UHGV virus genome: UHGV-1685692 | Direction: 5' to 3' (one strand) | Source: a virus | Length of the DNA stretch: 43,420 nt | In this document: positions 26,672 through 29,325 of the stretch, piece by piece | Layout of the letters: every line of letters begins with the position of its first letter | Position numbering within the stretch: position 1 is the stretch's first letter | Notes under the pieces: generated by a model | Seen by the model: the letters and a program-made list of their open reading frames with translations, nothing else | Told to the model about the DNA's origin: nothing | Database searches by the model: none | Translations under genes and position numbers: made by a program

Positions 26672-27472
26672 TTAGCGCGTTGCCGCGACAGGTACCAGCA
26701 CACCAGCATCAAGCAATCGCTTCATCAGCCACTGCTGACCTTTGCCGGTTATACGAGTCGTGAAAGAAATCCTGCTTCCATTGCTTGTATCGATCACGGT
26801 TTCTTTAAGGGTGAAATACCCACGGGATATGTATTCTTGTTTGGGGACGTTCCTGCGTTCACCGGTTGCGATCAGAATTCCGTTATCACGCAACCAGGTG
26901 AAGAGATAGTTTTGGCCCAGGCCGAGCACTTTGGCATAGTTGCCGATTAGAACCCCGCTGGCGGTAGCAACGCGTTCGGCGAATTCGACTTTAGGTGCAT
27001 CCATCAGCATTTTTTGCTCCAGCCGTTGCTTTTGCTCTGCCAGGTCAGCAGCCAAACGGAGAGCTTCTGGGAGGCTCTTCGGAATAGCAGGTTGTAATCT
27101 TCCGGCTCGATAGTCGATAAATGTCTGGTTTACCTTCAGCCGAAACGCGGGAGAAATCCAGCCTGCGTACTCCACTGCGAGCAATTCATGGGCAAAAGTG
27201 CCGCCGCCACGGCCTTCGAACGAAACTATGCAATTCTGCATAGTTTCTTTTTCAAGCTCTTCGATGAGCTGTTTGGCTGACAGCGTTCTTAGCCATTGAG
27301 CTGGCGCTTTATGGGCACCGAGTCCGCTCGCTCTGTGTAGAGCATTAAGGTTGTAACGGCCAGCGCGGTCGGTCGTAATTTCAACACCACAAATAACGGG
27401 CAGAGTGGTTGAAGGATCGACATTTTGATGAAGGTTTGATATATTCATATCCGCATTGAATGTTTGTTGCAT
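26672..27472 (-). CDS. kilA: KilA (KilA-N DNA-binding domain plus Bro/KilA-C-type C-terminal domain)
   Basis: 266 aa; N-terminal KilA-N-like region; the C-terminal half is paralogous to the C-terminal half of the downstream Ant-like protein (LPEALRLAA(D/E)LAEQK...KV(E/D)FA(E/D)RV, GKGQQWL); C1 operator upstream. Confidence 0.7.
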   Translation of the reverse strand: MQQTFNADMNISNLHQNVDPSTTLPVICGVEITTDRAGRYNLNALHRASGLGAHKAPAQWLRTLSAKQLIEELEKETMQNCIVSFEGRGGGTFAHELLAVEYAGWISPAFRLKVNQTFIDYRAGRLQPAIPKSLPEALRLAADLAEQKQRLEQKMLMDAPKVEFAERVATASGVLIGNYAKVLGLGQNYLFTWLRDNGILIATGERRNVPKQEYISRGYFTLKETVIDTSNGSRISFTTRITGKGQQWLMKRLLDAGVLVPVAATR

Positions 27473-27541: not shown

Positions 27542-27558
27542 AAATTTATTAGAGCAAA
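27542..27558. promoter_or_regulatory. C1-repressor operator controlling the kilA-repL operon (Op53-like)
   Basis: AAATTTATTAGAGCAAA is the reverse complement of the operator with one mismatch; lies about 85 nt upstream of the kilA start. Confidence 0.65.
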
Positions 27559-27636: not shown

Positions 27637-28680
27637 TTAACCTATTGCTACTGGTTTTAACAAACCAGCATCAAGTAGCTTGCGAGTTAACCACTGCTGG
27701 CCTTTACCCGTTAATTGGGGCGTCAGCCGTATCTGGTAGCCATTTTCATCATCCAGCACCACCTCTTTCACCGTGAAATACCCGGCGTTGATGTACTGTT
27801 GGCGCGGTACGTTTTTGCGCGCTCCAAAAGCCATGAGAATGCCGTTCTGGCGCAACCATGAGAAAAGGGCGTTTTGCTTAAGTCCAACGACCTTTGCAAA
27901 GTTCCCGATCAGGATTCCATTGGCCACTGATACCCGGTCGGCAAAATCGACTTTAGGGGCTGCGGCCACCAGCTGTTGTTCCAACTGCATTTTCTGTTCT
28001 GCTAACTCGGCAGCCAGGCGTAGGGCTTCTGGTAATGTCTGGGGGATCGATGGGGTAGGGGAGTTTGCCTGCTGCAATTCTTCCAGTTTGTCGATCAGCG
28101 AACGGCGGACAGCTTTTGATTCGCGCGCGGCGACTCGCAGGGCTTGTTTGTAGGTCATGGTTATGACAACCATAGGCGTACCGCCACCTGGCGGCACGGT
28201 TGCACTTTTTGTGTAACCGTCCTCACCTTCTAATTCGTCGAGTATCTTTTCGATGAATTTGTTGTTCCGAACGTCTGGTTCCCCACATAACTTACGCGCT
28301 TCATTGACCATCTTTAACAGTGTCTGGCTGTCGATTGAGTCTCCGGTGTTGGGGATGATATTCACGGCTGGTGCTGGCGTAGCTGAAGCAACAGGTGCTG
28401 GTTTTTCAACATTTAAATTATTACCGGTCATTCTATGTGCCTCCTTTCTCATTTCTGCTGCCACTGTTGCGTAACGTAGACGTCCTTGTTCAATCAAATA
28501 ATCCCTGATCTCGGCTATCAGTAGCCTGTTGATCACAGCCTTATCTGTTCGGGTATAAAAACGTCTGGTTATCATGAAATAGTTAGCAATTGCGCCGGGG
28601 ATCTCCCGTGTCGGCATACAGGTAGTATGCAAGGCGATCGCTTCGGCTATTTCATTACGGGTGATGAGAGGTGTTTTCAT
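27637..28680 (-). CDS. ant: antirepressor (Ant-like) with KilA-C/Bro-C-type C-terminal domain
   Basis: 347 aa; C-terminal domain shared with KilA; lies downstream of an icd-like ORF and a C1 operator, the arrangement of the P1 immI operon (recalled). Confidence 0.6.
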   Translation of the reverse strand: MKTPLITRNEIAEAIALHTTCMPTREIPGAIANYFMITRRFYTRTDKAVINRLLIAEIRDYLIEQGRLRYATVAAEMRKEAHRMTGNNLNVEKPAPVASATPAPAVNIIPNTGDSIDSQTLLKMVNEARKLCGEPDVRNNKFIEKILDELEGEDGYTKSATVPPGGGTPMVVITMTYKQALRVAARESKAVRRSLIDKLEELQQANSPTPSIPQTLPEALRLAAELAEQKMQLEQQLVAAAPKVDFADRVSVANGILIGNFAKVVGLKQNALFSWLRQNGILMAFGARKNVPRQQYINAGYFTVKEVVLDDENGYQIRLTPQLTGKGQQWLTRKLLDAGLLKPVAIG

Positions 28681-28898
28681 AAACCCCCCTGAACGTCGGC
28701 AGAGAAGGGGAGGCTCCAGTAACTAAGTGAATTGCGCGAGTTAGTTGAAAAACGGGCTGTAAAAATGCAGGGGCCATCAGGCAATTGAGAGCGTGCTTCG
28801 TCTTCTGTTGCTGCGATAACGAAGTGATAGTGGTGTTTTTTACAGGAATAGAAACGCCAGATGAATTCTGGGCGTGCGCAAGGATTGGCATTAACCAT
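28677..28898 (-). CDS. icd: Icd-like small protein overlapping the ant start
   Basis: ATG at 28896-28898 gives a 73-aa product (MVNANPCARPEF...), the size I recall for P1 Icd; stop overlaps the ant ATG (ATGA). Confidence 0.4.
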   Translation of the reverse strand: MVNANPCARPEFIWRFYSCKKHHYHFVIAATEDEARSQLPDGPCIFTARFSTNSRNSLSYWSLPFSADVQGGL

Positions 28899-28899
28899 A

Positions 28900-29200
28900 G
28901 TTACGGCCTCATTCGTAGGTTTAACAACCTGCGCCCCGCTGCTAAACGGGTGGCAGGACGTGACGGGGTTAGCAGACTGGCACGAATGAAACCAGCAGGC
29001 CGAAGCCTCCCCATCACGCCCCACCATAATTCGGGCGTAACGTGGTTTTACGGACACAAAAATACCGCAATATCGGATATCTGCGGTTGTCCGCATTCGT
29101 ATTCAGGCTGCTAAACCCGGTCGCAGAATTTGCTACGACGGCGGAACTATAAGCCTGAACGATTAAAAGGTCAATATGATGCGAAAAGATAGCATTTGCG
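28900..29200 (-). ncRNA. region expected to encode a c4-like antisense immunity RNA (boundaries not determined)
   Basis: Non-coding leader between the C1 operator and icd/ant; motif gctgctaaac occurs at 28932 and 29107 and ttagcaga at 28960, as expected for c4 and its target repeats; positional inference only. Confidence 0.25.
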
Positions 29201-29212
29201 ACTTAAAAATAC

Positions 29213-29229
29213 AAATTTATTAGAGCATT
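29213..29229. promoter_or_regulatory. C1-repressor operator (Op51-like) in the divergent region between the immunity operon and the secreted-protein gene
   Basis: AAATTTATTAGAGCATT is the reverse complement of the operator with one mismatch. Confidence 0.6.
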
Positions 29230-29325
29230 AATTGTATAACAAATACACAAATGGATCTAATAACCTCTTTTTTTTAAAGGCGAAAATATGTACCCTAAAT
29301 GGGTTATAAGGCAGGTGAGGTTATA

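Follow-up and report, generated by a model that had tools for sequence, protein, structure and literature searches.

The window, by which is meant the whole 43,420-nt stretch of viral DNA that was analysed (UHGV virus genome UHGV-1685692), carries on its minus strand a non-coding leader followed by overlapping genes. The first of these, icd (28677..28898), encodes a 73-aa cell-division inhibitor that is identical to P1 Icd at 71/73 residues; it matches no Pfam model, while NCBIfam NF033153 does match (E 4e-14). Its TGA overlaps the ATG of ant1 in the sequence ATGA (28680-28677). This is the ORF that the first-pass annotation, made from the letters alone, had described as icd-like and overlapping the ant start codon; a 73-aa ORF ending in ATGA is present in 78/102 related modules with a parsed ORF. 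The anti-repressor gene ant1 (27637..28680) encodes 347 aa, is 94% identical to P1 Ant1 and includes a KilAC/ANT domain (PF03374, E 1e-30). A nested in-frame gene, ant2 (27637..28431), probably starts at Met84 of ant1, where the start is preceded by AGGAGG; this placement follows the position of ant2 in P1 by homology. A KilA gene lies 3' of ant1 (27472..26672).

The surrounding DNA resembles that of P1-type phages. Megablast searches of positions 20000-43420 and 1-20000 against annotated phages returned P1, P7, RCS47, JL22 and other Punavirus at 96-98% identity along most of the sequence, and the 43-kb window is collinear with complete P1-type phages, with matches spanning >20 kb. Within 28600-29300 on the minus strand, identity reaches 94.0% to P1 over all 701 nt and 97.9% to phage vB_EcoM-813R1, with icd, ant1 and c4 as the annotated features underlying these matches. 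Every immI element annotated in P1 (AF234172) could be placed base for base on the minus strand of the window (alignment A1), and order and spacing from the operator Oc4 through ant1/ant2 are common to the window and P1 (AF234172 / NC_005856). The architecture is also that of P7 (AF503408), the classic heteroimmune partner of P1, which is ~95% identical to the window from the operator onward, whereas upstream of the operator the two have unrelated sequences.

On that divergent side the window has a different two-gene cassette in the place held by simABC in P1 and by upf50.5/upf50.0 in P7. The cassette is 99.5% identical to phage Ro157c2YLVW, a carrier of P7-type immI, so the window is a mosaic.

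Operator, promoters and repeated leader elements

The C1 repressor operator Oc4 (formerly Op51; 29213..29229, minus strand, AATGCTCTAATAAATTT) is identical to the P1 operator at 17/17 positions, in agreement with its earlier description as Op51-like, and departs from the C1-operator consensus at a single position (16/17 matches). It lies 331 nt from the icd ATG. Across the window, 5 C1-consensus-like sites were found against 0.34 expected; another of these, at 27542-27558, is located upstream of kilA, in the place of its P1 counterpart Op53. Tandem sigma-70 promoters are predicted upstream of c4, with all four hexamers as in P1. P2c4 (formerly P51a; 29186..29214, minus strand), mapped from AF234172 via alignment A1, has its -35 hexamer TTGTAT at 29214-29209 and its -10 hexamer TATCTT at 29191-29186; it overlaps Oc4 and differs from its P1 counterpart by one spacer change. 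The second, P1c4 (formerly P51b; 29146..29174, minus strand), consists of TTGACC, a 17-nt spacer and TATAGT, agrees fully with the promoter annotated in P1 and matches 10/12 consensus positions in a promoter scan.

Downstream of these promoters, two short elements are repeated. The 10-mer GTTTAGCAGC (gctgctaaac on the plus strand) occurs exactly twice in the 43-kb window, on the minus strand at 28938-28947 and 29107-29116; its chance expectation is 0.08, and two copies were reached by 1/100 shuffles. Both copies had been noticed at first pass, the one at 29107 exactly and the other 6 bases off, at 28932 instead of 28938. A related ttagcaga, likewise reported there, was located at 28969-28976 and is the reverse complement of the a' element of the C4 RNA described below. 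That annotation saw just this "a" element and named no strand (it is the minus strand), and it missed a second, "b" element: ACGAATG is present at both 28910-28916 and 29094-29100, and the complement of this 7-mer lies at 28982-28988. As a 7-mer, ACGAATG is found 6 times in the whole window against 6.2 expected, which is chance level, and the b element was therefore established from co-variation, not from counts.

Together these repeats make up four candidate C4 targets on the minus strand, all mapped from the P1 annotation. The upstream pair consists of a1 (UUAGCAG, 29108..29114), which is complementary to C4 a' and covaries with it, and b1 (ACGAAUGC, 29093..29100), which is complementary to the C4 b' loop. 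In the downstream pair, a2 (UUAGCAG, 28939..28945) begins 4 nt past the 3' end of C4 and also covaries with a', and b2 (ACGAAUGA, 28909..28916) extends into the icd Shine-Dalgarno sequence GAGG (28910-28907), 8 nt before the ATG. Both b1 and b2 covary with b' at six/six variable positions. The leader also includes the structured c4-a1b1 motif (29100..29152, minus strand; Rfam RF03163, 56.2 bits vs a gathering score of 46.7, E 1e-11), a pair of hairpins of which the second carries a1 in its loop. In the minimum free energy (MFE) fold of the full 261-nt leader, a long-range helix joins the a1 region with sequence following a2, at an ensemble frequency of 0.0035, too low for the helix to be given weight.

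The C4 RNA and its recognition elements

Between the two target pairs lies the C4 antisense RNA, whose 77-nt processed form is placed at 28949..29025 (minus strand) by homology to P1 c4, a misc_RNA to which it was aligned. The Rfam model RF01695 (C4) matches at 29031..28946 (minus strand) with 71.9 bits vs a gathering score of 45. A c4 candidate of about 77 nt had been put forward for structure prediction, and the 77-nt sequence does fold stably: its MFE is -45.7 kcal/mol (z -6.3), and equally stable shuffles numbered 0/200. The predicted fold has a long closing stem, a hairpin capped by UUCG and a second hairpin whose 9-nt loop contains the recognition element b' (C plus AUUCGU, 28982..28988, minus strand), identified from alignment A1, the fold and the allele survey. 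The other recognition element, a' (CUGCUAA, of P7 type, 28969..28975, minus strand), rests on the same three lines of evidence and forms a 7-nt internal single strand. Both elements are perfectly complementary to the window's own upstream (a1, b1) and downstream (a2, b2) targets.

At the level of RNA families, the window shows no difference from known C4 systems. It matches both RF01695 and RF03163 (clan CL00128) over their full length, with the consensus three-stem structure. These families span many Proteobacteria and their phages, and the window falls in a narrow P1/P7 subgroup with an invariant scaffold.

Where the window does depart from P1 and P7, the substitutions fall together in three short, mutually complementary patches instead of being spread along the alignment (A1). 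Apart from the recognition elements and one stem base, the P1 C4 scaffold is that of the window. In P1, b' is ACUAAC, with GUUAGU in b1 and b2, and a' is CUGUCAA; this differs from the window (b' AUUCGU, b1 and b2 ACGAAU, a' CUGCUAA) at 4/6 positions of b' and at two positions of a', and b1, b2, a1 and a2 are changed to match. P7 has the same a', a1 and a2 as the window (a' CUGCUAA), whereas its b' (ACAAUC) differs at 5/6 positions, with matching b1 and b2 (GAUUGU). The window thus lies outside the P1 specificity group, defined by b' ACUAAC and a' CUGUCAA, and outside the P7 group, with which it agrees in a' and not in b'.

Predicted duplex energies of the isolated elements follow the same pattern. 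Window b' pairs with its own b2 at -11.7 kcal/mol, against -3.5 with that of P1 and -3.2 with that of P7; for a' and a2 the corresponding values are -9.0, -5.3 and -9.0 kcal/mol. When whole C4 was cofolded with the a2-b2 leader (RNAcofold), the gain from interaction was zero, whether the combination was cognate or non-cognate. This result is uninformative because kissing between loops or internal loops on a folded scaffold is a pseudoknot that cofolding cannot represent, and the isolated duplex energies were used instead.

As the P1 c4-icd-ant logic proposed at first pass would have it, the segment 28677-29229 (minus strand) is an orthologue of the P1/P7 immI operon in a Punavirus phage-plasmid, and we predict from its sequence, with a probability of roughly 93%, that it is an intact and functional secondary immunity operon; no feature of the sequence speaks against this.

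Recognition alleles among P1-like elements

IMG/VR was searched by exact match to a 25-nt core of C4, which retrieved at least 120 stretches. Among the modules listed, the 77-nt C4 scaffold is essentially invariant. The recognition elements vary, and among the same matches there are at least seven loop hexamers (ACAATC, GTAAGT, ACTAAC, ATTCGT, ATGTAC, ACAAGT and TTGAAC), at least two forms of a' and at least 12 combinations of a' and b'. Despite this variety, in 103/103 of the listed modules with complete flanks all four targets (b1, b2, a1, a2) show perfect complementarity to the C4 of the module itself, and as a control, a non-cognate hexamer was present both upstream and downstream in 0/618 cases. 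The lone mismatch among the matches listed is found on a 4.9-kb contig (L044) that is probably a chimeric assembly; its genome has a second module. At least seven IMG/VR contigs carry two or three modules of c4-icd-ant type, in which b' is always different and a' is often common.

A second alignment (A2) was built from one representative per allele combination (11 allele representatives). Here, both partners have changed in 8/15 intermolecular pairs, and in no pair has just one partner changed; the 8 are made up of the six b positions and the two variable a positions. Pairing is preserved in 98.2% of cells for the downstream targets and in 100% for the upstream targets, compared with 25-52% once the partner has been shifted by 1-3 columns. 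What is observed directly is the set of parts and the order in which they stand, the RNA fold, the complementarity, and this strict co-variation across relatives. In 103/103 modules the six b positions vary together at three places, which implies selection on b pairing.

Several described phages and plasmids can be assigned to this allele series. P1 carries b' ACTAAC with a' CTGTCAA; P7, RCS47 and Ro157c2YLVW carry ACAATC with CTGCTAA; JL22 has ACAATC with CTGTCAA; SJ46 has GTAAGT with CTGCTAA; and D6 has GTAAGT with CTGTCAA. The pair found in the window, ATTCGT with CTGCTAA, is also present in vB_EcoM-813R1 (ON470617) and vB_EcoM-673R5 (ON470615), which are 97.7-97.9% identical to it over the module. 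The two phages differ from the window on the sim side, which is P1-like in both, and by frameshifts in icd (813R1) and a GG insertion in b1 (673R5), possibly sequencing errors, whereas the window is intact. In both records c4 is unannotated, as it is in the listed public records that carry the window's allele.

The exact 86-nt C4/a2 stretch of the window was found in 37/414 matching PLSDB plasmids and in 48/408 matching records of complete E. coli genomes, so this allele is common, not rare, and it is present in ~10% of sequenced P1-like elements. P1-type c4 as such is present in 403/5426 complete E. coli genomes, and a scan of species-representative genomes returned 3 loci only. In the literature that was searched, no description of the C4 allele series was found; Gilcrease & Casjens 2018 and the P1 genome paper may cover part of it. 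Judged by its sequence, the recognition hexamer AUUCGU appears to be a third, frequent and uncharacterised specificity beside those of P1 and P7.

Regulation and immunity specificity

The immI system itself is already textbook, and its C4 RNA is a small antisense RNA that represses anti-repressor synthesis. Reportedly, RNase P matures C4 (Hartmann et al. 1995), and once icd translation is blocked, transcription is said to terminate prematurely, in a Rho-dependent manner, before it reaches ant (Biere, Citron & Schuster 1992). In P1 and P7, C1 acts at Oc4 to repress the operon, C4 is also needed for full repression of ant and pairs with sites near the ribosome-binding site, expression of ant requires icd, and C1 is inactivated by a complex of Ant1 and Ant2 (AF234172 notes; PMC8198154; PMC8546580; PMC12197685; Weinberg 2010 supplement). 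Processing of C4 to 77 nt and repression of icd and ant in trans are known for the same two phages from Citron & Schuster 1990 and 1992, as cited in PMC8198154, PMC8546580 and the Weinberg 2010 supplement.

By analogy, transcription in the window would start at the two tandem promoters, the upstream one being covered by the C1 operator, and would yield a transcript ordered a1, b1, C4, a2, b2, icd and ant1/ant2. From this transcript C4 would be excised as a 77-nt RNA, as in P1 and P7. Its b' element (C-AUUCGU, in the hairpin loop) and its single-stranded a' element (CUGCUAA) would then pair with b2 and a2 of such transcripts. Because b2 abuts the icd ribosome-binding site, this pairing is expected to block icd translation. 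If ant is coupled to icd both translationally, through the ATGA overlap, and transcriptionally, the anti-repressor would consequently not be made, and the C1 repressor would hold the prophage silent. Processing, the translational block, coupling and anti-repressor action are all carried over here from work on P1 and P7. The upstream a1/b1 pair may serve as a second binding site that competes for C4, a role that is itself a published proposal rather than a demonstrated fact (Weinberg 2010 supplement).

Other readings of the locus were weighed. The repeats might act at the level of DNA, as iterons bound by a protein, or might have arisen by chance, given that a 10-mer occurs twice and a 7-mer three times within 300 nt and that the window count of the 7-mer is at chance level. 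However, the third copy of each element is a reverse complement and is unpaired in a very stable RNA fold, changes between C4 and its targets always preserve complementarity and never identity, and both Rfam models are matched; this reading was rejected on the compensatory co-variation between C4 and targets, and we give it practically no credence. Somewhat less remote, yet still highly improbable, is that the module is a decayed, non-working immI remnant of the kind seen in P1-like plasmids without phage functions. Deleted or rearranged immI regions are documented in such plasmids (PMC6906374), and close GenBank relatives show the icd frameshifts (813R1) and the GG insertion in b1 (673R5) described above. 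In the window, however, every component is intact, from the operator and the two promoters through C4 and its four targets to icd (with its Shine-Dalgarno sequence and the ATGA overlap), ant1 and ant2, and all of them match one another; on these grounds decay was rejected, and the surrounding 43 kb are collinear with complete P1-type phages.

A more serious question is whether this intact operon could nevertheless be co-immune with P7, if pairing of a' with a2 alone sufficed and the new b hexamer conferred no new specificity. With a' and both a targets identical to those of P7, and a predicted duplex of -9.0 kcal/mol in each, the idea has some substance; indeed, since a' and a2 are common to the two, partial cross-repression by a P7-type C4 is possible. 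Full co-immunity nonetheless seems unlikely. It is b2, not a2, that adjoins the icd ribosome-binding site, and among the matches listed all six b positions co-vary at three places in every one of the 103 modules. Genomes with several modules always differ in b' while often sharing a', and natural recombinants of a and b occur in at least 12 combinations among those matches. Given the divergence of b' from both phages, the C4 of P1 or P7 should not repress this operon through b. On the basis of nearest-neighbour duplex energies calculated for the isolated elements, the operon is predicted to have an immI immunity specificity different from that of either.

At a minimum, the analysis assigns a strand and coordinates to C4, to each of the four targets and to icd and ant in a P1-like phage-plasmid, and the series of alleles matched at three sites offers a natural set of orthogonal antisense/target pairs. 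The alleles of b' and a' are also a testable predictor of superinfection immunity and of co-residence among P1-like plasmids in Enterobacteriaceae. More tentatively, and at somewhat less than even odds, immI of the P1 family may work as an RNA 'address code' with many alleles used in combination, instead of as a two-state P1/P7 system, with AUUCGU/CUGCUAA marking an immunity group heteroimmune to both. If so, diversification of the hexamer would govern superinfection and co-residence of P1-like phage-plasmids, a group in which resistance genes are present in many members.

Co-resident c4 modules

Some P1-like phage-plasmids carry more than one copy of the c4 immunity module. Among the IMG/VR matches listed, two or three modules per contig were found in at least seven P1-like contigs (loci L015/L078/L107, L018/L053/L102, L056/L065, L068/L094, L057/L100, L101/L114 and L109/L113). 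Across these seven, modules that share a contig never have the same b' hexamer, the C4 element complementary to targets b1 and b2. One hexamer, ATGTAC, occurs in six of the seven contigs, and the module that carries it therefore looks like a 'second-site' module. In L078, the extra module comprises c4, an Icd-like ORF (73 aa) and an Ant-like protein (372 aa). The window, which spans under half of a P1-size genome, contains one C4.

Irregular modules and records

Among the modules listed, L044 (IMGVR_UViG_2565956613_000015, 4.9 kb) is the only one in which b2 fails to match its own C4 and b1: b2 is of the P1 type (GTTAGT), while C4 and b1 are of the ATTCGT type. A second module of this genome, L076, lies at the end of a contig. 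Either the assembly of L044 is chimeric, or L044 is a recombinant of natural origin that would be expected to evade control by C4. A P1-type c4 module with matching targets (allele GTAAGT/CTGCTAA) lies on a short contig of a metagenome bin labelled 'MAG: Bacillota bacterium' (L125; JAFAFU010000019.1, 2.9 kb), and is most likely a mis-binned fragment of an enterobacterial phage-plasmid.

Two phage records also show irregularities. In 673R5 (L127), b1 is interrupted by a GG insertion (ACGGGAAT), while in 813R1 (L003) the homopolymer runs of icd contain single-base and 2-base deletions; both are probably sequencing errors. Neither record annotates c4, and the 417-nt 'Icd' annotated in 813R1 starts within it. 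In the window itself, Ant1 residues ~153-172 (~28165-28225, minus strand) form the only non-conservative stretch relative to P1 Ant1 (GEDGYTKSA-TVPPGGGTPMVV vs GE-FYTKSAKSHGTRAGRSFEV in P1). The sequence flanking this patch of ~20 aa is identical, and the patch itself has the appearance of a compensated double frameshift.

Features in and around immI

A compound hairpin (29050-29093, minus strand; GCGGACA-ACCGCA...UGCGGU-AUUUUUG-UGUCCGU) begins at the 3' end of b1, lies between b1 and C4 and includes a U-run. It is conserved, almost invariant, across relatives. It might serve as an attenuator, or might affect b1 accessibility or C4 processing.

Elsewhere in the window, matches to the C1-operator consensus include an overlapping inverted pair (8167-8194), a single site at 11454-11470 and another at 27542-27558, upstream of kilA in the position of P1 Op53. 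The window also has three tRNA genes (5283-5355, 7359-7431 and 7437-7509, minus strand), in agreement with what is expected of a P1-type genome.

Beside the immI operator, two plus-strand ORFs of 224 aa (29299-29973) and 158 aa (30025-30501), each with a signal-peptide-like N-terminus, occupy the slot that holds simA/simB/simC in P1 and upf50.5/upf50.0 in P7. A family search of this cassette returned no families at the curated cut-off (PTPlike_phytase scored 26.4 against a cut-off of 27). The cassette shares 99.5% identity with phage vB_EcoM-Ro157c2YLVW and ~73% with Cronobacter phage JK004, whereas likeness to the P1 simA region is limited to the first ~230 nt beside the operator. The two-ORF cassette beside immI is a variable cargo slot.
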